Counted from the stretch's first letter, positions 47,119 through 56,988 are shown. The stretch is DNA of 64,000 bases from an uncultured Candidatus Cloacimonadota bacterium (GCA_964501025.1 CAZCRD010000103.1:3412-67411); one strand, 5' to 3'. Numbers and translations are program-made. Notes: generated by a model not told the origin, from the sequence alone.

Positions 47119-48546
47119 CTAATCCAGATATCGCTTCAGGCGGTTTACGGATATCCCCAGATATCTTGCCGTTTGGCTTTTGTTGTTGTTATGCAAAGCC
47201 AAAGCCTTATGGATGATGCTACTGATCGCCTTGTTCAAGCCAAAATCCGTTTCCGGAAACTCCAAAAAGAGCTGTCTCTTGCCCAGTGCGTCGAAATTTA
47301 TGGGGCTATTGGGCAACAGGAAAGAGAAGTAATCTGGAGCGATTTCTATAGCTTCCGAGATCAGATACGCACGTTCCATCGCTCCCTGCAATTCGCGCAC
47401 ATTGCCCGGCCAGGAGTATTCACGCAAAAGTCTGGCAGTATCATTGGTCAGAAACTTCAAGGGCTGATGTTTTTTCGCGGATATCTGTTTGAGAAACAGC
47501 TGTGCCAGCGGAATGATCTCATCACGTCGCTCACGCAGAGGCGGGATCTTGATGAAGACTGTGGAGATGCGATAGAATAGATCACTGCGAAATTGCTGAT
47601 CCGCAACGAGAGTCTGCAGATCGTGATGAGTGGCAAAGAGAAAGCGAATATCCAGAGCAATGCTTTTGGTGCCTCCCACCCGATACATCTCGCGTTCTTG
47701 AATCACGCGCAAAAGTTTTGGCTGCATATCAAGGGGCAGATCTCCGATTTCATCCAGCAGCAGCGTGCCACCATTGGCCATTTCCAGTTTGCCGATTTTC
47801 CCCTCGCGATTGCTGCCGGTGAAGGCACCCCGTTCATAGCCAAAGAGTTCGCTTTCAAAAAGAGTGGGCGGAATGGCAGAGCAATTCAAAGTAATAAAGG
47901 GACGCGTGTTTGATTCCTCACCAAAATGGATGAGCCTGGCGATAAGTTCTTTGCCGGTGCCGGTTTCACCAGTGATGAGTACCGGCAGATCACGGTCTTT
48001 ATGGATTCTCAGACACAGGCTCGTGATCTGACGCATGGCTTCAGAATAGACCCCCATTCCCTTGAAACCAAGCTCTTGCTGATATTCACTTTGCAATGCT
48101 GCCAGCTCTTTCTTGACTGCATCCAGGCGAGCTTGGAGGGCAGTTTCAAAATCCTGCTTCAGCAGCTTCAATTCCCTGCGTTCCTGCAAGATAACTCCGA
48201 GTTGCTTGATTTTTGTAGCCAGAAGTTCCAAAGACAAGGATTTGGGCAAGACCTCATCTGCTCCATACTCCAAAGCTTTCAATTGGGCTTCCGTGTCGGT
48301 TTCACCACACAGGACAATGATCGTGCCATTCCATAGCTGCCCTTTGAGATGATCCATGAGATCAAAACTGTCCAGACCCGGCATCATCAATTCGCTGATG
48401 ATCATATCCGGCATCGCAGTGGGTAAAATATCCAAGGCTGCTTCGATGCTGGAGCAAGCTTGGCAATTGTGCCCCAATTGCACTTTGAGAAAGTTCTGTA
48501 TGGCTTCAAGGAAGAGCGAGTCACTTTCTATTACCAGTATGTTCAT
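47119..48546 (-). CDS. Sigma54-dependent response regulator (REC - AAA+ - Fis-type HTH; NtrC family)
   Basis: REC (NILVIESD...DMIISELMMPG), Walker A GETGTGKE, GAFTG loop, ESELFGY and a C-terminal HTH (KSQTARYLGISVNRLKRYL). The ATG at 48546 forms an ATGA overlap with the kinase stop. Confidence 0.9.
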   Translation of the reverse strand: MNILVIESDSLFLEAIQNFLKVQLGHNCQACSSIEAALDILPTAMPDMIISELMMPGLDSFDLMDHLKGQLWNGTIIVLCGETDTEAQLKALEYGADEVLPKSLSLELLATKIKQLGVILQERRELKLLKQDFETALQARLDAVKKELAALQSEYQQELGFKGMGVYSEAMRQITSLCLRIHKDRDLPVLITGETGTGKELIARLIHFGEESNTRPFITLNCSAIPPTLFESELFGYERGAFTGSNREGKIGKLEMANGGTLLLDEIGDLPLDMQPKLLRVIQEREMYRVGGTKSIALDIRFLFATHHDLQTLVADQQFRSDLFYRISTVFIKIPPLRERRDEIIPLAQLFLKQISAKKHQPLKFLTNDTARLLREYSWPGNVRELQGAMERAYLISEAIEIAPDYFSFLLPNSPINFDALGKRQLFLEFPETDFGLNKAISSIIHKALALHNNNKSQTARYLGISVNRLKRYLD

Positions 48547-50201
48547 TGCATATCTCCAAAGTGCAGGCGAAATCCCCAAGCATCGTCTTTTTTGTGAATG
48601 TTTAGCCTGTAACCATAATGGTCACAGAGATATTTCACGATAGCCATACCCATCTCGGAAGCGGCATTTTGGGTATCTGGTGAAAGGGGATTGTATAGCT
48701 GATTCATCATCTCACGGGTAACTTCAACCCCGTTTTGCATGATGTCCAAACAGAGTTTGCCATCAGCGCAGCAAGCTTCGATCTTGAGCACCTTTTGTTT
48801 TCTAGGACATCGTTCCAGGATACTCACACAGTGGGCTAAGAGGTTTATGATAATCTGTTGCAAATGTGTGGGCGCTGCTTTGATGGGAGGAAAGGAACCG
48901 CAGCCCAGGCTGATGAGCTCGATTCCGCCAGCAAAGATTCTGCGGCTGAGCAGGCACAGAGATTGCTCGATGGTCTCATCCAAGCTGCAAAGCTTGATCT
49001 CAGCCGTCTTTCCCGAGTTCCAAAACTGACGGATCTGCTGGAGGAAGGCTTCAATGCGCTTTACCCCTTCCATGATGTGCGCCAATTCCTGATTGAAGTT
49101 CATCGGCAAAGTAATTTCCTCGCGCTTGAGCCAATAGAGGATGCTTTCCGTGGATATTCGGATGGCTGAAAGAGGTTGATTTAACTCGTGGGTAATCCCC
49201 GAAGAAAGGATGCCCAGTGTAGCCAGACGCGCAGAACGTTCGGTAAGGTTCATCGAGATCAGATTCCGGTTTTCCCGCGCATAATAGCTCTGGATACTAT
49301 TTGCTTTCTTGATGGTATCGGAACTAATGATCTGTCCATATAGCTGGCTGTAAGCGAATTGAGCCTTGAAGGCCGCTTCCCATTGCTGCTGTTCGGCATA
49401 ATAATCGGCCAACAGAGCTTGACTTTTCAATTGATAATTCTGCAGCAAATTTTGTTCTGCTTGATCCTTGGCCTCCAATAGTAGCTGCAGTGCCAATTCC
49501 TGATTCCCCAGTGCTTTGTTTGCCATCGCCTGGTTCAAGCTCAAAGCGCAGGAAATTTCTTTGGGGGTTTCCACCGTGCTCGAATGCATCAAAGCAGAGG
49601 CTTCATCCAGCTCCGCCAATGCGGCTTCAGGTTCTTGCTGCTTGCACAGGATATCACTGATGTTGATGTGGCTGATGATCATGCTGCGGATATTCCGGTT
49701 TTCTTGGGCTATGGCCAGCGCTTGACGGTAGTATCCGATAGCTGCATCCAATTCTCCCTTGAGCATGCGCAAATAGCCGAGATTGTTCACACTGCGTTCA
49801 TAGCCGGAATGTAGAGCATGTGACTTCTCAAAACACTCGGTGGCCTTGGGAATATTTGAGAGCTGGATAAAAATGTCGCCCATGCTGTTATAGGCTTCAG
49901 CTTCCCAGTTTTTATTTCCCAATTGCTGGTTCAAGCGCTGTGCTCTCAGGTAATACTCCAAAGCAGCGTCGTAATCATCCAAATAGGCGTAAAAAGTACC
50001 GATCAGGTGCAAGGCCTCAGCCTGAACACTTTCTTCACCCAGATTCATCCCCAGCTCAAGAGCTGCTTCAGCAAAGGTCTTGCCGGAATTGTATTCACCG
50101 GTTTTCCATGCTTCAGCAGCAAGCTCCAAGAGCAGCTTCGAACGCTGATGCGGATCTGTACTTTCTTTTAGCTGTTGCTTCAATTGCGTAATGTCTTTCA
50201 T
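48543..50201 (-). CDS. Cytoplasmic TPR-repeat sensor histidine kinase
   Basis: About 250 aa of TPR-like repeats. H-box GITHELNQPLSAI and an HATPase_c C-terminus. No TM segment. Confidence 0.85.
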   Translation of the reverse strand: MKDITQLKQQLKESTDPHQRSKLLLELAAEAWKTGEYNSGKTFAEAALELGMNLGEESVQAEALHLIGTFYAYLDDYDAALEYYLRAQRLNQQLGNKNWEAEAYNSMGDIFIQLSNIPKATECFEKSHALHSGYERSVNNLGYLRMLKGELDAAIGYYRQALAIAQENRNIRSMIISHINISDILCKQQEPEAALAELDEASALMHSSTVETPKEISCALSLNQAMANKALGNQELALQLLLEAKDQAEQNLLQNYQLKSQALLADYYAEQQQWEAAFKAQFAYSQLYGQIISSDTIKKANSIQSYYARENRNLISMNLTERSARLATLGILSSGITHELNQPLSAIRISTESILYWLKREEITLPMNFNQELAHIMEGVKRIEAFLQQIRQFWNSGKTAEIKLCSLDETIEQSLCLLSRRIFAGGIELISLGCGSFPPIKAAPTHLQQIIINLLAHCVSILERCPRKQKVLKIEACCADGKLCLDIMQNGVEVTREMMNQLYNPLSPDTQNAASEMGMAIVKYLCDHYGYRLNIHKKDDAWGFRLHFGDMQ

Positions 50202-50696
50202 TTTTAGTCCTGAGGATAAATATTTGGATGCGGCTAAGACTGTCCAGTAAAATCTGCTTGGGGTAGATCCCGACCCTTTGTTTTCTGATCCTCAACTCGT
50301 TGTGCTATCCAGATGATAAAGTGATGATATTGCTACTAATTAGGCTCTCTTCATGCTCAAGGAGCTAAGATACTTCTTCCCCCATAGCATTGCGGCATCA
50401 CTACGCCATCATTGCGGGTCACACCCGTATTGATACCGTAGTGATAAAGGGATAGGGGTGCTGATCCCAAGATGTCAAAATGGCACAATCTCTTAGATAG
50501 GCAAGAGTACCAAAAAGAAAAGTAAATCAGCACATCACAGCTGCGCGCACCGCCGCCATTCAGGAGTACATATCCGTTTTGAATTAGCCAAATCCGATAC
50601 TCTATCCATTATGGATGAGTCAGGGGAAAGACATCCCTTCCCACAACTGTATATTATTACAAGCTCTTAGGTCACAGACTGCCAGTTTGGCGGGAT

Positions 50697-50712
50697 TGGT
50701 ACAAAAATTGGA
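50697..50712 (+). promoter_or_regulatory. Candidate sigma54 (-24/-12) promoter
   Basis: TGGTACaaaaaTTGGA versus the consensus TGGCAC-N5-TTGCW. GG and TTG are correctly spaced, but the -12 GC is GG. It lies ~27 nt upstream of the CheY-like ATG, before AAGGAG. Confidence 0.4.
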
Positions 50713-50738
50713 TTTATCAATGGCAAAGGAGAAAACGT

Positions 50739-51113
50739 ATGGTAGCCATAATCGTTCAGGACGACCTGATCCGCCAAGCATTACAGGGACTCTTGCAAAG
50801 AGCCGGAGTAAGAGCCAGGTTCTACAGCAAGATTAGTGAATCAAGTGCCGCAATCATGGAAAATCCAGCTGACTTGGAAGCCGTGATCATTGATTATGAC
50901 ATTGATCCCGATCTCTGCAGATGGCTGATATCAGGCATTATCAAGCTTACCGAACAGGTTAAGATACTTGTTTATTCAGATTTTCCCATCTTTGGTTTTC
51001 GGGAACCAGACACGAGGAATCCCTATCTCTGCCTCAAAGAGAAACCCTTTATTCTCAGTGATATACTGGAAACAATAACAAGCGATACAAGGAGGAAACA
51101 TGTCTCGCTATAG
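50739..51113 (+). CDS. Stand-alone CheY-like receiver protein
   Basis: 124 aa with IIVQDD (acidic pocket), VIIDYDI (putative phospho-Asp), ILVYSD and KEKPF (conserved Lys-Pro). AAGGAG RBS. Confidence 0.6.
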   Translation: MVAIIVQDDLIRQALQGLLQRAGVRARFYSKISESSAAIMENPADLEAVIIDYDIDPDLCRWLISGIIKLTEQVKILVYSDFPIFGFREPDTRNPYLCLKEKPFILSDILETITSDTRRKHVSL

Positions 51114-53535
51114 AAAGTCCTTAATTCGTGCTCGTCGCATACTCTTTATTTTGATGTTGGCTGGCCTTTCCGGGAGTTTATTTGCATCGTACTCCAAGCT
51201 GCCTGAGGCTCGCATTAGTCCTTATAACCAGGTTAATCAAGCAATACCCAGGGTCAATGATTTTAAAGCAGACCAAAATGATGCCTCAAACTGGCAGGCT
51301 TATCTGAATCCTTACAACTTCTCTGCCATGATCGAGGATGGTGACTATTTGTGGTTTGCCAGTCCCATGGGAGTCTTGAAGCACAATACCCTTTCCGGTC
51401 AAACCGAATTGATCAATACCGCCAATAGCGGAATAAACTCGAATTTTGTATCCGATATGATGCTACACTCATCCGGTGACTATTGGTTTGCACACACTAC
51501 CTTGGTTTCAGATGACAATAGCTGTGGTGGCATCAGCATCTTGCATCCCGATGGCAGCTGGACCGTCTGGAACTATGAGAATGCGCCTTTTCATTCAAAC
51601 AACATCATGTGTTTGGGCGAAGATGATATTGGTAGAGTGTGGATTGGCTATGGTATGAACGGATATTCCGAAGGCGGGATGTCTATGTATGACCCCTCCA
51701 ATGGAGAATGGCAATACTTCAACAAACACAATTCCGATATGCCTTCGAATACAGTATATTCCTTTCATTTGGCAGCTGACGGCAAGCTTTGGGTAAGCCT
51801 CACGGGTGACGTGGATCCGGATCCCTATGAGGGCGGTGGTTTAATGAGCATACAAGGTTACGATTGGCAGGTCTATACTACTCAGATTGCCGATGATCCA
51901 GCAGAACCGCTCAAAGAATGGTCGATCAAAAACATAGTGGAAGATAGCCAGGGAAATCTCTGGTTTGCCCTTTCCGGATCTGTGGATTCGGCATTGTACC
52001 AGTATGACGGTGAAAATTTCATCCGCTATGAAGCACCATTTGTTGCCATGTATTGGGATGTCGCCATCGATGCCCAGGATAACATTTATGTGAATGGTAT
52101 CGTGAGCCGGGTTTACAAGTTTGACGGAACAAACTGGACAACCCTGCCCGATCCTGATGCCATAGCCGATGGCAATTACATCCAGAACATTTGGATGGAC
52201 TCCAACAGCAAATTGTGGGTAGCTCTATATGATGGTTATCTGGTTACTTACGAAAACGATACTTATACATATCCAAATCTGGAGTTGGATAGTCCGGTCA
52301 AAGGCTTAAACAGCTTTTGGACTATGGATTCTGATGGGCTTGGTAACACATACTTCGGTACTGGTTGGTATGTATGGGGAGCCATCCCCACCGCAGCATC
52401 GCTGATGCATTGGGATGAAAGCCAGTGGCAGAGCTTTAATTACACCTCCTATCAAAACTATGTAGTAAATGATATCGCCTGGGATATGCAAGGCAAGCTC
52501 TTGATCGCCACCGGAGATTCGAACTCTGATGCAGCAAATCTCTTTGACATGTACGGCTCGGTATGCCGTCAGACGGAGAATGGCTGGATCAAGTATGATT
52601 ATGAAACCACCGGCTATCCCTTTATCTATGCAAAACTGGCACAAGAGGATTACAATGCTTTTCTCTGGGCTGGCACCAATACCAATGGTCTTGCAGTTTA
52701 CGATGGCGTGGATTGGACGGTATATGACAGCAATAATGTTCCCAATATGTCTGTGATGATTATGGACATTCTGGCCAGTCACAATGAGCCCGTAGTATGG
52801 GTAGCCACTGCCAGCGGAATATTCAGAGTGGATATCAGTGATTCGGAAAACTATATCTGGGAACACTACCATCCTCTCAATTCTGAGCTCCCGGCATGGT
52901 GTGTAAACACTTTGGCCTGGGATGCAGATGGAAGTCTGTTGATCGGGACAGAATCCGGTCTGGCGAGATTTCAAAACAATGAACTCAGCGTAATGCAGGA
53001 TCTTGACGGAGTCTATATCACAGATCTTAGCATGGATGAAAATGGTGATCTTTGGCTCGGAACCATTAGCAATGGTTTGCTATGTGTTGCGGATGATTCG
53101 GTGACAGCTTATACCCGCAGCAATAGCCCCTTGCCCTCAAACACTATTTACTATGTAGCTTCGGATCAACGAGGTACGCTGTGGATTCATCCACATAATA
53201 ACGGTTTGTATCGCATGGACTACAACAGCTCCACCGCTGATGATCCAGCTCTGCCCCGGCCCGTTGCTCAGCTCAAAAACTATCCCAATCCCTTTAATCC
53301 GGAGACTGCAATCAGTTTTGAGCTACCTGAGGCCAATGATGCTAAGATCGGTATCTACAACCTGAAAGGACAATTGGTAAAAAGCTATCCCAAGACCAGA
53401 TATCCTGGAGGTATTCATCAAATCAGCTGGGATGGCAAGTCCGACCAAGGTGTTCCCTGCAGCAGCGGAATCTACTTCGTTCGTGTGCAATCAGACAACT
53501 ATAGCCTAAACCACAAAATGACCCTGATGAAATAG
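51100..53535 (+). CDS. Secreted protein with two-component-regulator-propeller (Reg_prop-like) repeats and a T9SS/FlgD-Ig-like C-terminal sorting domain
   Basis: Signal anchor. Many repeats of the type D..G.LW.GT..GL..YD...W..Y....S.LPSN.I. The C-terminus reads NYPNPFNPETAISFELPEA...IGIYNLKGQLV...SGIYFVRVQ...KMTLMK. Confidence 0.75.
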   Translation: MSRYRKSLIRARRILFILMLAGLSGSLFASYSKLPEARISPYNQVNQAIPRVNDFKADQNDASNWQAYLNPYNFSAMIEDGDYLWFASPMGVLKHNTLSGQTELINTANSGINSNFVSDMMLHSSGDYWFAHTTLVSDDNSCGGISILHPDGSWTVWNYENAPFHSNNIMCLGEDDIGRVWIGYGMNGYSEGGMSMYDPSNGEWQYFNKHNSDMPSNTVYSFHLAADGKLWVSLTGDVDPDPYEGGGLMSIQGYDWQVYTTQIADDPAEPLKEWSIKNIVEDSQGNLWFALSGSVDSALYQYDGENFIRYEAPFVAMYWDVAIDAQDNIYVNGIVSRVYKFDGTNWTTLPDPDAIADGNYIQNIWMDSNSKLWVALYDGYLVTYENDTYTYPNLELDSPVKGLNSFWTMDSDGLGNTYFGTGWYVWGAIPTAASLMHWDESQWQSFNYTSYQNYVVNDIAWDMQGKLLIATGDSNSDAANLFDMYGSVCRQTENGWIKYDYETTGYPFIYAKLAQEDYNAFLWAGTNTNGLAVYDGVDWTVYDSNNVPNMSVMIMDILASHNEPVVWVATASGIFRVDISDSENYIWEHYHPLNSELPAWCVNTLAWDADGSLLIGTESGLARFQNNELSVMQDLDGVYITDLSMDENGDLWLGTISNGLLCVADDSVTAYTRSNSPLPSNTIYYVASDQRGTLWIHPHNNGLYRMDYNSSTADDPALPRPVAQLKNYPNPFNPETAISFELPEANDAKIGIYNLKGQLVKSYPKTRYPGGIHQISWDGKSDQGVPCSSGIYFVRVQSDNYSLNHKMTLMK

Positions 53536-53544
53536 GAGAACTCA

Positions 53545-56500
53545 ATGATACGCAACATCTTGATAATAGTATTTTGCCTGTGCTCCATTCTTCATGCTGT
53601 ATACCTGCATGAAGGATGGGACGCGGGCTCCTTTGCAGCCAATGCCTGGCACAAAGATGCCTCGTGTGAAAACTGGCAGGTGATGAATATAGGTGGATAC
53701 CACTTACGTTTTGGCGGTTTTCCGGAACTGGAGAACTATAATAGCAGCCTGCAATCCCAGATCTTTGATCTTGCCGGTGTAAGCTCGCTATCGCTGGAGT
53801 TTAAGCTCAAAGGAATCAGCCTGGAAGCCACACAAAGTGAATATATGGCAGTAGAATACAGGATTGACAATTCTGAATGGATAGCGATATTCGATATCGA
53901 AGCGACAATAGGCGATGTAATGGATCCCCTTGAATCATACAGCTATAGCTTCAGTGAACCAATCGCAGGAAACACTATTCGCTTTCGCTTTAGGGCTTAT
54001 GGCGAGAACAGCGCAAACTTCATGTTTTGGCAAATTGACGACATCCTGCTCAAAGACCAGGATTATCAAGCTCCAGCCATTATCAGCGGAATTGTGACTG
54101 ATTCTAACATGCAAGCCATTGCAGATGCATTGGTTAGCGATGGCCAAAACTATGTTCGCACTGGATTTTCCGGTACTTATACTTTGCCGGTGCAGCCCTC
54201 AGCTCAAATTGCAGTCACCGCCAGGGCTTTCAGCTATTACGATGGCTCTGCCCAGCTAATCAACATCGAATCCGAGGCTTCAGCCATAGCGGATATCACG
54301 CTGCAAGCTGAAGACGGAGAGCTCATGGATCCTTTTGCTATGAATGCCAGTGTGTATTACTCTGATACGGGCGCTTCTTGCGGTGTGTACTGGAATGCAG
54401 TGCATGAGTTTCCTGGAGATGGAGTATTAGAATTGGCTTACGACTCTCCTCCTGTAGATTACTTCTACAATCCTTTCATGATCAATGAATGTGAGTACAT
54501 GGTGGTAAAGTATGAACGGGATTGGGATCTCAATCTCGGAGCCGTGAAACTGGCACTCAGAAGTATGATGCCTACATCGGTGGAACTGGTTGCTTTTTAT
54601 GAGAGCAATGGTCAGCCAGATCTGAATAATCCCGTCTTTGATAGCCCTCAGATATTTGATTTTGTGCCTGAGGTCTCGGGATATCCGCAATGGCAGCAGT
54701 TTCCTCTGCCCTTCTTCATAGAGGCTCAGACTCCCTTTTATCTGGGAGTAAAATATCGAAATGGAGATCTCTATAGCGTTGGCATCACTCCGACTGATGA
54801 GAGCAGAACCTACTATAGTTTCGACAGTGAAAACGATTGGGAAATCAGCAGCGGTGAAGCAGCCATGATTCGCCTCTTGGGCAATGAATATGAACCATGG
54901 GATGCACGCAATCTGCTGGGATACAATCTCTACCACAATCATCAATTGGTGAACGATACTCCCCTGATGGGAAGCTATTATTATGATGATCAGCTTGATT
55001 GGGGGGAACACATATACTATGCCACAGCGGTTTACAGCACTGGCGAGAGCAATATCACCAACAGCGTGTGCGTAAACGTCAGACCGGTGGCAATCAGCTC
55101 CGTAAACCTCAATCAAAACCCCAGCGGAGATCAATATGTCATCGTGAGTATGATTGCCTACAAGGTCCATGGAGGTGTATCAAGCCTGAGCTTGCTGCGA
55201 AACGGAATAGAGATCTACAACTATGCAAATCCCGATCCCGAACAAAACTTGCTCGAATGCATCCACTTGGATTACAATCTGGAAAACGACACCGCGGTCG
55301 AGTATCAGCTACTGGCCAGTTATCTGGACGGCAGCAGTTCTCTGAGTGCTGTGTATCAATATCGCTGTTTATTGCCTCCAGAAAATCTTGTGGCAGAAGG
55401 ATGTGAGGCCGGCGTAGCGCTATCTTGGGATGCACCCGTGTCGCCCAATCGTGCTTTACTGGGCTATCGCATCAGCCGAAACGGTAATGGAGATTATCTG
55501 GAGTTTGATACTTTGATTCTGGAAACCGAGTATCTGGATACTGGAATGGAACTGGGTTTGGTTTACGATTATCTGGTTTCCGCAGTATATGAAGATGGCG
55601 TGGCAGATTCACCCTTAGTATCCGTGGTGGCAGGTCCTGCTGTATATCATCCGGTTACAAATCTGGAATCTGCCATCGAAAACAATCAAGTCAAGCTAAG
55701 ATGGGATCGCCCTGATGATACCTACATGATCTTAAGCAAAAATGCTCCGGGAAAATCCCAGGGTTTTGCTCCGGGACACAACTTCACTGCCGGCATCAAC
55801 TTCATCCCCGGGCAAATGATGGACGCCATCAATCACATTAGTGCAGGTCTGGCCTTCATACCTGTGTCCGATGCCCCGGTAACAGTGAGAGCCTACAATT
55901 GCAGCAATCCCGAAGAAGAGTATCTTTGTGATGAGATAGTATTGGAAACTCCCACTGCCGGCGAATGGAACTTCGTGCCTTGCTATAGTATAAACGTGGA
56001 GTCTATGCTGGCTGCATACAGATTTGAGCTGGAAACAGATGGTGGGCTGATGCTGGATGATGCCACCAGCCCTGTAGCCGGAGCCAATGCTATCATGGTC
56101 GATGGTGAGATCAGCGATCTGCAAACCCAATATGGGATCAACCAAAACTGGAAGTTTGCCATCAAACTAAAAGAGACGGATCATGTCAACCCCTGTACTC
56201 GCGATCTCTATCCTGTGCTAACCGGCTATAAAGTGGTATGCAACTCTGAAGAGATCTCCATGGAAAGCGAATTCGATCAATTCTATCAGGAGCCAGCAAG
56301 CAATGACGAATATCGTGCATACTACATCCTTGCCGTTTATGACACTGGAGAATCCGATCCCAGCAATACAGTGGAAGTGGCACCAGTATCGATCTCTGAT
56401 GAGGATATAGCTGTCCCGTCAATCGCCCTGCAAAATCATCCTAATCCCTTTAACCCCAATACCAAGATCAGTTTTAATCTGCGTGAAGCGTCTGATATAA

Positions 56501-56691
56501 AACTACAGATATTCAACGTGAAGGGGCAAATAGTAAAAACGCTGCACCAGGGTCATTTAGCAGCCGGAAAACACACGCTAATATGGAATGGAATAGATGA
56601 TAACAAGCGACCAGTAAGCTCGGGAATCTACTTCCTGCGTCTGGACGACGGACGTAAGATCAATCACAAGAAAATGTGCTTACAAAAATAA
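53545..56691 (+). CDS. Giant secreted multidomain protein (carboxypeptidase-regulatory-like and FN3-like modules) with a T9SS/FlgD-Ig-like C-terminal sorting domain
   Basis: Signal peptide. ISGIVTDSNMQAI...GTYTLPV (CarboxypepD_reg-like). PPENLVAEG...ALSWDAP...GYRISRNG (FN3-like). The C-terminus reads NHPNPFNPNTKISFNL...LQIFNVKGQIV...SGIYFLRL...KKMCLQK. Confidence 0.7.
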   Translation: MIRNILIIVFCLCSILHAVYLHEGWDAGSFAANAWHKDASCENWQVMNIGGYHLRFGGFPELENYNSSLQSQIFDLAGVSSLSLEFKLKGISLEATQSEYMAVEYRIDNSEWIAIFDIEATIGDVMDPLESYSYSFSEPIAGNTIRFRFRAYGENSANFMFWQIDDILLKDQDYQAPAIISGIVTDSNMQAIADALVSDGQNYVRTGFSGTYTLPVQPSAQIAVTARAFSYYDGSAQLINIESEASAIADITLQAEDGELMDPFAMNASVYYSDTGASCGVYWNAVHEFPGDGVLELAYDSPPVDYFYNPFMINECEYMVVKYERDWDLNLGAVKLALRSMMPTSVELVAFYESNGQPDLNNPVFDSPQIFDFVPEVSGYPQWQQFPLPFFIEAQTPFYLGVKYRNGDLYSVGITPTDESRTYYSFDSENDWEISSGEAAMIRLLGNEYEPWDARNLLGYNLYHNHQLVNDTPLMGSYYYDDQLDWGEHIYYATAVYSTGESNITNSVCVNVRPVAISSVNLNQNPSGDQYVIVSMIAYKVHGGVSSLSLLRNGIEIYNYANPDPEQNLLECIHLDYNLENDTAVEYQLLASYLDGSSSLSAVYQYRCLLPPENLVAEGCEAGVALSWDAPVSPNRALLGYRISRNGNGDYLEFDTLILETEYLDTGMELGLVYDYLVSAVYEDGVADSPLVSVVAGPAVYHPVTNLESAIENNQVKLRWDRPDDTYMILSKNAPGKSQGFAPGHNFTAGINFIPGQMMDAINHISAGLAFIPVSDAPVTVRAYNCSNPEEEYLCDEIVLETPTAGEWNFVPCYSINVESMLAAYRFELETDGGLMLDDATSPVAGANAIMVDGEISDLQTQYGINQNWKFAIKLKETDHVNPCTRDLYPVLTGYKVVCNSEEISMESEFDQFYQEPASNDEYRAYYILAVYDTGESDPSNTVEVAPVSISDEDIAVPSIALQNHPNPFNPNTKISFNLREASDIKLQIFNVKGQIVKTLHQGHLAAGKHTLIWNGIDDNKRPVSSGIYFLRLDDGRKINHKKMCLQK

Positions 56692-56717: not shown

Positions 56718-56743
56718 AAGCCCCGATTTTTCGGGGCTTTTTT
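56718..56743 (+). terminator. Rho-independent terminator after the 53545 gene
   Basis: AAGCCCCGA-ttt-TCGGGGCTT followed by TTTTT. Confidence 0.8.
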
Positions 56744-56988
56744 GTCTGCTGAAAGCTTGAAAGTAAGATCAGCTTAAGCTATACATGAGGGTATTGTGTT
56801 TGTGACTTGCAAGTTAGCATCAAAATCTCGCAGCTCTGTTGCGGATACAAAGTGAGAAGAGCCCATATCCAGAAGGCGACTTGCTAAAGTGCGAGGCACC
56901 GGCCATCAAACATTTTCATTGACAGCTTTTGCCCTTCATGAGATCCATCAACGAACATGAAATTGGTCCCATATTTGAGGTGTGTATT

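Follow-up and report, generated by a model that had tools for sequence, protein, structure and literature searches.

The 64,000-nucleotide stretch of DNA analyzed here (the window) corresponds to contig C103:3412-67411 of a 2.18-Mb Cloacimonadaceae metagenome-assembled genome (129 contigs, 94% complete, GC content of 48%), and homologues of its proteins bore NCBI names from Candidatus Cloacimonetes, Cloacimonadaceae and Syntrophosphaera. Positions 47119 to 56691 harbored two regulatory genes on the minus strand and, across a 537-bp intergenic spacer (50202-50738), a divergent operon of three genes on the plus strand. The minus-strand open reading frames encoded a sigma-54 enhancer-binding protein (47119-48579) and a nominal TPR histidine kinase (48543-50201), and the plus-strand ones a 124-aa receiver-like protein (50739-51113), an 811-aa beta-propeller protein (51100-53535) and a 1048-aa beta-sandwich protein (53545-56691). 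The five frames and the spacer agreed with a preliminary description made from this DNA, as did the ATGA overlap between the two regulatory genes, formed by the kinase stop TGA (48545-48543) and an ATG (48546-48544). As this ATG overlapped the kinase stop, the activator was taken to start at 48546 and to comprise 475 aa, the length likewise called for its orthologue at locus L013; the 486-aa frame with a TTG start was an artefact of the open reading frame listing.

On the plus strand, the receiver gene overlapped the propeller gene by 14 nt, and the propeller gene was separated by 9 nt from the gene for the 1048-aa protein. An intrinsic terminator (56718-56749, plus strand; 9-bp stem with six GC pairs, T run after it) followed the last gene, so that the transcription unit was considered to stop before the REC/ATP-grasp paralogues downstream. 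A linkage of the cassette to these paralogues, which the preliminary description placed immediately after it, was rejected given this strong terminator and the absence of such genes beside the cassette at every orthologous locus. The host genome encoded rpoN (Sigma54_DBD, 165 bits, in a 490-aa frame on contig C48) along with ten enhancer-binding proteins.

The same five-gene cassette was present in eight further Cloacimonadaceae species, with different flanking genes each time. Wherever the contig allowed, the activator and the TPR kinase lay on one strand and the receiver, propeller and beta-sandwich genes on the other. The flanks included a transglutaminase and a CitMHS transporter, an electron transfer flavoprotein with lysine-fermentation genes, or S-adenosylmethionine synthase and a GTPase (MMR_HSR1/GTP-bdg domains); because they varied at every locus, the GT8-like, DUF4842 and REC/ATP-grasp neighbours in the window were considered incidental. 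The proposal of a self-contained module of regulators and cargo was borne out by this recurrence amid unrelated flanks, and the divergent arrangement was kept in relatives. Of the 24 species sampled from the genus, 4 had a receiver homologue (with the window's own genome counted), and homologues were also seen in one further genus. The 1048-aa protein had full-length orthologues in 9 of 232 species genomes of Cloacimonadota, which all belonged to a single family and spanned five genera. The five genes are an accessory cassette of the Cloacimonadaceae. At locus L010 (G009:C144, 4802-9743), in a relative's genome 67% complete, the receiver, propeller and beta-sandwich genes were each broken by frameshifts or an in-frame TGA, and the nearly identical metagenome contig L013 carried the same genes intact; the broken genes reflect either assembly error or a decaying copy.

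The nominal kinase (552 aa, 48543-50201, minus strand) combined TPR repeats with a HisKA domain scoring 26.9 bits, exactly at the cut-off, and a weak HATPase_c domain (29.4 bits against a cut-off of 26.4). It was considered soluble since no hydrophobic window of 1.6 or more was found, and the cytoplasmic location first assigned to it fits the lack of any detected membrane segment. Its H-box ITHELNQPLSAI (H338) was invariant in orthologues and intact when aligned to ZraS (9jfj) and FixL. The boxes expected to bind ATP were altered: the N, G1 and G2 boxes read NLLAHC, QNGVE and SEMGMA, whereas ZraS, FixL and four further kinases encoded by the host genome had the canonical NLxxNA, DxGxG and GxGLGL at all three. 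The second, Mg-binding Asn of the N box was His in the window and H, Y or F over seven orthologues, the Asp of G1 was replaced by Gln (Thr in genome G035), and the G2 glycines were lost in the seven orthologues. These replacements were themselves conserved among orthologues of 46 to 81% identity, which argues for a constrained new role rather than decay. The assignment as a TPR histidine kinase thus stood for the TPR, HisKA and H-box parts and failed for the N, G1 and G2 boxes, whose degenerate motifs suggest a loss of ATP binding; the protein is better described as soluble, of TPR-DHp type and degenerate in its catalytic domain.

The sigma-54 enhancer-binding protein (475 aa, 47119-48546, minus strand) comprised a receiver, a helical linker of about 55 residues, an AAA+ domain and a Fis-type helix-turn-helix (Pfam Response_reg, Sigma54_activat (PF00158) at 209 bits, AAA_lid_14 and HTH_8). 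The HTH_8 match (PF02954) reached 24.9 bits for a cut-off of 22, with a conserved helix, and the AAA+ motifs GETGTGKE and GAFTGS were invariant in orthologues. Together with rpoN in the genome, these domains upheld the earlier assignment as an NtrC-type sigma-54 activator. Its receiver departed from the canonical form, reading IISELMMPG where the six other receiver-bearing enhancer-binding proteins of the genome displayed xxxDxxxP. The acceptor position was Glu in six of seven orthologues, and the acidic pair was ES, DS or NN instead of DD; both this pair and the Thr/Ser, whose position was occupied by Cys, Ser or Leu, were counted as lost in all seven. With Glu as acceptor, a Glu-Ser acidic pair and Cys for Thr/Ser, the window activator kept only the Lys of the residue set of a phosphorylatable receiver, a set that was canonical in the six others. 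On these residues, the kinase and activator do not appear to form a classical phosphotransfer system and are probably phosphorylation-independent.

A module with all five genes on a single strand was found in genome G059 (locus L020), from another family of the same order, in the order TPR kinase, activator, small receiver, propeller and beta-sandwich protein. Its kinase boxes were intact (NIVVNA, DNGAG, GMGLGL; HATPase_c at 69 bits), its activator kept the acceptor Asp (LLISDIRMPG; Response_reg at 96 bits), and its small receiver was canonical (Response_reg at 64 bits). This sister-family module looks exactly like a classical two-component system. In the cassette of the window, such a system would have the TPR kinase autophosphorylate on H338 and phosphorylate the receiver of the activator, which would then assemble and activate the sigma-54 promoter. 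This mechanism would agree with the invariant H-box, with the sister-family module and with a domain order like that of the NtrB/NtrC, AtoS/AtoC and ZraS/ZraR pairs, but it appears improbable: an acceptor Glu, present in the window and five other orthologues, cannot take phosphate from a kinase, the acid pocket is lost, Thr/Ser is Cys in the window, and the three ATP-binding boxes are degenerate compared to those of the other kinases of the genome. In a second sister-family module (genome G142, locus L023), the beta-sandwich gene had a candidate promoter TGGTAT-N5-ATGCA immediately ahead of it and the genes for the TPR kinase and the activator after it; in G059, a candidate promoter TGGCAC-N5-ATGCT stood 47 nt before the receiver start. 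As seen in these two modules, the link between regulators, sigma-54 promoter and cargo pair outlasts changes of gene order. Judged from these sequence comparisons, the window's family carries a derived, eroded version of a module that is canonical in the sister family. Elsewhere in the sister family, at L021 (G046:C21) and L022 (G177:C107), the propeller and beta-sandwich pair lay amid several other tail-bearing genes with neither TPR kinase nor activator within the 13 to 18 kb read, so that the cargo pair can exist without local regulators.

The 124-aa protein encoded by the first gene of the plus-strand operon (50739-51113) had no match in Pfam or NCBIfam, even at E<=10, and a profile search against PDB gave a weak hit (3jte, E 0.06). 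Its AlphaFold2 model, built from six orthologues, displayed the alternating strands and helices of a flavodoxin-like fold, with a loop in place of helix 4 (predicted local distance difference test score, pLDDT, of 81). Foldseek retrieved receiver domains almost exclusively (among them PmrA, Spo0F, KdpE and NtrC1), with template modelling scores of 0.61 to 0.76 among the top hits, whose identity was 12 to 20%. Residues D8, D52, D54 and K102-P103 were invariant down to 31% identity, and S80 was mostly kept (Arg in genome G118). Alignment of profiles with hhalign matched the protein to the G059 receiver at the same operon position (E 3e-5), including D52, the YSD block and the KP motif. On its predicted fold and this alignment, the protein is a single-domain receiver lacking helix 4; the stand-alone receiver of the preliminary description was therefore sustained by fold, Asp pocket and sister-family profile, and not by any family model.

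The invariant pocket of the small receiver would also suit a rewired relay, in which this protein is the sole phospho-acceptor, charged by acetyl phosphate or by an unlinked kinase, and passes the result to the activator by contact. The TPR-DHp protein would then have phosphatase or phosphotransferase activity in the manner of ChpT or Spo0B, or would read the phosphorylated form as DivL does with DivK (PMC4211667). The receiver fold, the canonical sister-family counterpart, the invariant DHp His and a catalytic domain resembling the ATP-blind domains of phosphotransferases all speak for such a relay. Against it, the cassette has no linked donor kinase, G118 carries Arg for S80, the second acidic position is variable and the model lacks helix 4. 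The relay overlaps with the contact-based scheme preferred here, differing from it only over whether phosphate is still used, and is considered rather unlikely.

The intergenic spacer carried a sigma-54 promoter candidate, TGGTAC-N5-TTGGA, on the plus strand (TGGTACAAAAATTGGA, exactly at 50697-50712 as first noticed). The GG at -24, the 10-nt spacing and the TTG of the -14 to -12 region were kept, and the -12 dinucleotide was GG, not GC; it was GG or GA in the orthologues. The motif TGG-N9-TG occurred once per distinct spacer and always on the cargo strand (the window had one extra, overlapping match), with no match on the regulator strand of any spacer, and lay 43 to 47 nt from the end of the start codon in seven of eight distinct species. 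The elements read TTGGTAC-aaaaa-TTGGA in the window, TTGGCAC-aagaa-TTGGA in L013, TTGGCTC-gattg-TTGAG in L014, TTGGCTC-gtttt-TTGGA in L016, TTGGCAC-gttta-TTGAT in G035, TTGGCTC-ggttg-TTGAA in G016 and TTGGCAC-ggttt-TTGGT in G102, and the sequence around them was otherwise little conserved in the aligned spacers. The near-consensus character first ascribed to the element thus held for its GG, spacing and position, and not for the canonical C at -12. In the eighth species, G118 (GCA_046485025.1, L015/L018, 7140-7185), which has Arg at the Ser80 position of the small receiver, the corresponding sequence was CTGAGAAC-aactt-TTGTT.

Downstream of the element, the block GCAAAGGAG (50724-50731, plus strand) was invariant over seven aligned loci and was found in all seven of a further comparison. 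It would comprise the 5' end of the transcript and the Shine-Dalgarno sequence, and its location twelve nucleotides after the -12 position places the predicted start near 50723. The genome-wide recurrence of TGGTAC-N5-TTGG that had been proposed as support was not obtained: the genome contained six matches, of which the window site was the sole intergenic one, and support came from the orthologous loci instead. The broader motif TGGYAY-N5-TTGS had about 97 matches in the genome, with about 9 intergenic, which is roughly the share of non-coding DNA (from crude gene calls). Other intergenic candidates of the genome ended in the canonical TTGC, for instance TGGCACGGAGATTGCA on C40. The -12 C is said to be highly, not absolutely, conserved in the work of Barrios et al. 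from 1999 and of the Gralla laboratory, and its loss reportedly mainly loosens closed-complex silencing.

The missing -12 C in all members of the family, the missing GG in G118 and a weak sigma-70-like match at 50628-50657 would fit a different reading, that the TGGYWC-N5-TTGR block is an operator or another promoter part and that the operon is read by a housekeeping sigma factor. Such a reading is very improbable, as the block is fixed in position and spacing to the start codon, a sigma-54 activator gene is always adjacent, and canonical GG-N10-GC promoters stand at the same place, before the same cargo genes, in the two sister-family modules. Moreover, sigma-70-like matches in the region were in no excess over shuffled sequence (20 against a mean of 17.4).

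A palindrome, ATCCATTATGGAT (50604-50616), lay 88 bp upstream of the -24 GG and is a candidate enhancer to which the activator may bind. It was the sole copy in the 2.18-Mb genome, which fits a dedicated, single-target activator. Orthologous loci displayed palindromes or half-sites (TGTCCA/ATCCA ... TGGAT/TGGACA) 124 to 179 nt before the ATG, with counterparts TGTCCATTATGGAT in L016, ATCCACTATGGACA in G035, ATCCGAAATGGAT in L013 and ATCCATTTTGGAT in G102. The arrangement was inverted in G118, the half-sites were separated in G016, and a degenerate copy alone was found in L014.

Upstream of the regulator operon, a sigma-70-like promoter candidate (TGGACA-16-AATATT, 50219-50246, minus strand) matched the consensus and may drive the two regulatory genes. 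A TGTCCAG box, whose minus-strand reading supplies this candidate, occurred 35 to 54 nt from the kinase start in all loci, and fitted a -35 hexamer better than a sigma-54 element. For this operon, a sigma-54 promoter was dismissed, as the minus-strand spacings offered by the box (GG-N8, N9 or N11-GC) varied between species and TGG-N9-TG was absent from that strand in every spacer.

The operon downstream of the candidate sigma-54 promoter encoded two large proteins, both with hydrophobic, signal-like N-termini and both ending in a type A tail of a type IX secretion system (T9SS). The TIGR04183 tail scores were 40.2 and 30.7 bits for a cut-off of 23, and the T9SS translocon SprA was encoded on C62 (527 bits); Cloacimonadota are listed among the phyla that may have this system (PMC11285876). 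The two tails aligned end to end over 88 residues with two gaps, and were 50% identical rather than near-identical as previously stated. A special kinship between them was rejected, since about 60 tails of the genome were 40 to 52% identical to them. These approximately 60 type A tails, mutually 40 to 52% identical, represent a very high surface-cargo load for a 2.18-Mb genome.

The 811-aa protein (51100-53535, plus strand) harbored Reg_prop, FlgD_ig and Por_Secre_tail domains in Pfam, as anticipated, and its orthologues were alike. Neither a Y_Y_Y domain nor a kinase or regulator part was found by Pfam in the propeller protein or its orthologues. Its closest solved relative was the sensor domain of BT4663 (4a2l, E 4.5e-18), and its distant relatives were either sensor kinases and cyclases with Reg_prop and Y_Y_Y domains or kinase-less proteins with Reg_prop and Por_Secre_tail domains. 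The many relatives of the latter kind make the combination of Reg_prop repeats and T9SS tail a recurrent architecture; an exported Reg_prop protein with no kinase, which had been regarded as unusual, is shared with PorZ and many uncharacterized proteins. Distant paralogues of the propeller (about 21% identity) were encoded at C103:631-2634, just before the window, and at C16:3053-4912.

The 1048-aa protein (53545-56691, plus strand) was predicted to be all-beta, with a jelly-roll-like N-terminus, a CarboxypepD_reg-like domain and FN3-like repeats before its tail. In Pfam, FlgD_ig and Por_Secre_tail were above cut-off and CarboxypepD_reg below it (27.5 against 32.3), and the FN3-like stretches were seen through PDB matches. 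Scans with family models added CarboxypepD_reg, FN3 and an RGI-lyase beta-sheet domain. The model (mean pLDDT of 68) was good from residue 460 on and resembled arrays of FN3/Ig ectodomains, such as the MAM-Ig-FN3 ectodomain of RPTP mu. No catalytic domain was found by Pfam, NCBIfam, PDB sequence search or Foldseek, which returned FN3/Ig-type ectodomain matches only. Hits to SGL and RGI_lyase were rejected as catalytic evidence, reflecting fold-level similarity among beta-propellers and beta-sandwiches. As the most economical reading, the two large proteins most likely form a surface binding or adhesion pair, and their role is probably to bind a polymer or a partner cell.

The propeller could instead be a PorZ-like helper that attaches the 1048-aa cargo to the surface, by presenting anionic lipopolysaccharide (LPS) to the sortase, and not itself a binder. 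Its size, its Reg_prop body with a tail, its rank as second-best match to the PorZ model NF052228 in the genome (its top-scoring stretch reached 68.7 bits when the genome was scanned) and the location of its gene always just before the cargo gene, sister family included, would agree with this role. Nonetheless, its full score of 101 bits fell far under the cut-off of 260, and the solved structure closest to it, 4a2l, is that of a glycan-sensor domain. Its tail is colinear with the cargo tail and thus lacks the extra hairpin and length of the uncleaved PorZ and PorU tails (PMC11285876). A helper role is therefore quite improbable, and the identity of the propeller as PorZ itself was rejected on its score, its cargo-type tail and a better candidate on C69; that best PorZ-like candidate of the genome lay at C69:4176-6641.

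Gene order, the conserved cis elements, the presence of rpoN and of T9SS, the residue losses and the canonical sister module, all established in silico, are the basis of the scheme proposed here. A sigma-70-type promoter would probably drive the two soluble regulators, the TPR-DHp protein and the sigma-54 enhancer-binding protein. The activator would bind the palindrome at 50604-50616 and open the sigma-54 promoter at 50697-50712 with its intact AAA+ motor, yielding one transcript for the small receiver, the Reg_prop propeller protein and the beta-sandwich protein. Sec would take both large proteins through the inner membrane and T9SS through the outer one, and they would most likely work jointly at the surface in binding or adhesion. 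The window's family has probably lost His-to-Asp transfer to its activator, whose control would then lie in protein contacts: the TPR domain would provide the input, and receiver domains would dock on the DHp helix. Induced along with the cargo, the small receiver would feed back on the DHp protein or on the receiver of the activator. We infer every binding event in this scheme, as well as the direction of the feedback and the function of the cargo. Taken as a whole, that is an activator at the palindrome driving the sigma-54 promoter, set by contact with the TPR-DHp protein and with feedback from the small receiver, the scheme is held to be marginally probable.

A more far-reaching interpretation is offered tentatively, as a possibility. 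The two-component system of one family may have given up phosphotransfer as a unit, leaving an ATP-blind TPR-DHp scaffold, an activator with a phosphomimetic Glu and no acid pocket, a promoter whose -12 C, the base that ordinarily holds such promoters silent, became a purine, and a small receiver, encoded by the target operon, that as the sole part with a still intact Asp pocket would be the signal carrier of a contact-based feedback switch.

Several observations weigh against the proposed scheme. The activator of G035 keeps the acceptor Asp, albeit in a degenerate receiver pocket. The invariant His of the H-box suggests that some phosphoryl chemistry may survive, and so does the invariance of D8, D52 and K102 in the small receiver. 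Throughout the window's family the -12 base is a purine, G or A, in place of the canonical C, G118 lacks the -24 GG though all five of its genes are intact, and TTGG-type motifs were not enriched outside genes across the whole genome. Finally, the first half of the model of the 1048-aa protein was poorly predicted.

The regulatory pair resembled NtrB/NtrC, AtoS/AtoC and ZraS/ZraR in having a kinase gene followed by a gene for a REC-AAA+-HTH_8 activator and, as the likely target, an adjoining candidate sigma-54 promoter with an upstream palindrome. Its H-box was of the HELNQPL type, like those of ZraS and FixL, the best solved match of the kinase core was ZraS (9jfj), and the activator scored 283 to 308 bits with the NtrC and AtoC models, all equivalog scores being below their cut-offs. 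It differed from this class by a soluble, TPR-built sensor with degenerate ATP boxes, by Glu in place of the acceptor Asp and by the addition of a single-domain receiver within the target operon.

Another parallel is offered by PrsK/PrsR/PrsT (Haft et al. 2006, PMC1569441), which link a kinase, an activator of the NtrC family and a TPR protein to genes whose products bear C-terminal PEP-CTERM sorting signals and all of which have a sigma-54 motif in front. The third-best NCBIfam match of the activator was PEP_resp_reg (298 bits, cut-off of 502.6). Unlike that system, the cassette has T9SS tails rather than PEP-CTERM and exosortase, a TPR part fused to the kinase, and a single local target instead of a regulon. 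Sigma-54 control of the cell exterior and of cargo with sorting signals is an established theme (PMC3162934, PMC1569441).

Among exported proteins, the propeller shared with PorZ of Porphyromonas gingivalis (PDB 5M11) a Reg_prop-type propeller with a T9SS tail and no kinase, but it is patchy (9 of 232 genomes) rather than a core component, and its tail is of the cargo type. With BT4663 (PDB 4a2l), a hybrid two-component sensor of Bacteroides, it shared the Reg_prop repeats; in contrast, it is exported by T9SS and has no Y_Y_Y domain, membrane segment, kinase or regulator.

The proposed feedback has parallels in Alphaproteobacteria, where Osp, a pathway-induced single-domain regulator, binds the transmitter domain of the kinase CckA (PMC9430884) and the pseudokinase DivL reads the single-domain receiver DivK (PMC4211667). 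The likeness would lie in an output-induced receiver acting back and in a kinase-like protein that reads a receiver without working as a kinase; the lineages and outputs are unrelated, and sigma-54 plays no part in the alphaproteobacterial systems. The parts of the module are of known kinds, and its eroded signalling chemistry alongside a canonical sister module is the new element.

Anaerobic digesters abound in uncultured Cloacimonadota, which live as fermenters and syntrophs; to our knowledge almost nothing is known of how they control their cell surface. The cassette ties a defined regulator to a DNA site and to two T9SS surface proteins, and can be rebuilt in a laboratory host because all of these are defined. 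The eroded and canonical modules form a natural before-and-after pair for the passage from a kinase/response-regulator pair to a phosphorylation-independent switch. In addition, the cassette allows its natural Asp-to-Glu receiver to be compared with NtrC D54E, an engineered constitutive variant.

Other regulators of related type were encoded in the host genome. About 1 to 2.6 kb past the end of the window (C103:68438-70022), a second kinase gene accompanied a gene for a canonical receiver-bearing enhancer-binding protein; the G1 and G2 boxes of this kinase were canonical, and its N box fell in an alignment gap. Two more enhancer-binding proteins, located at C89:12094-12597 and C25:676-1176 in frames of 879 and 749 aa, had no receiver and displayed long N-terminal regions, TPR-like by eye, directly before the AAA+ domain. 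If these regions are truly TPR, TPR input to sigma-54 activators would be a theme in the host organism.

The spacer of the window was twice the length of those of most relatives owing to an extra segment of about 280 bp. This segment contained an imperfect 23-nt inverted repeat (ATCACTACGCCATCATTGCGGGT / ACCCGTATTGATACCGTAGTGAT, 50397-50445), which may represent an additional operator or the insertion of a small element. A related inverted repeat was found in the closest relative alone (L013/L010), where L013:6895-6976 carried a 39-nt version built from 11-bp ATCACCGTATC repeats.

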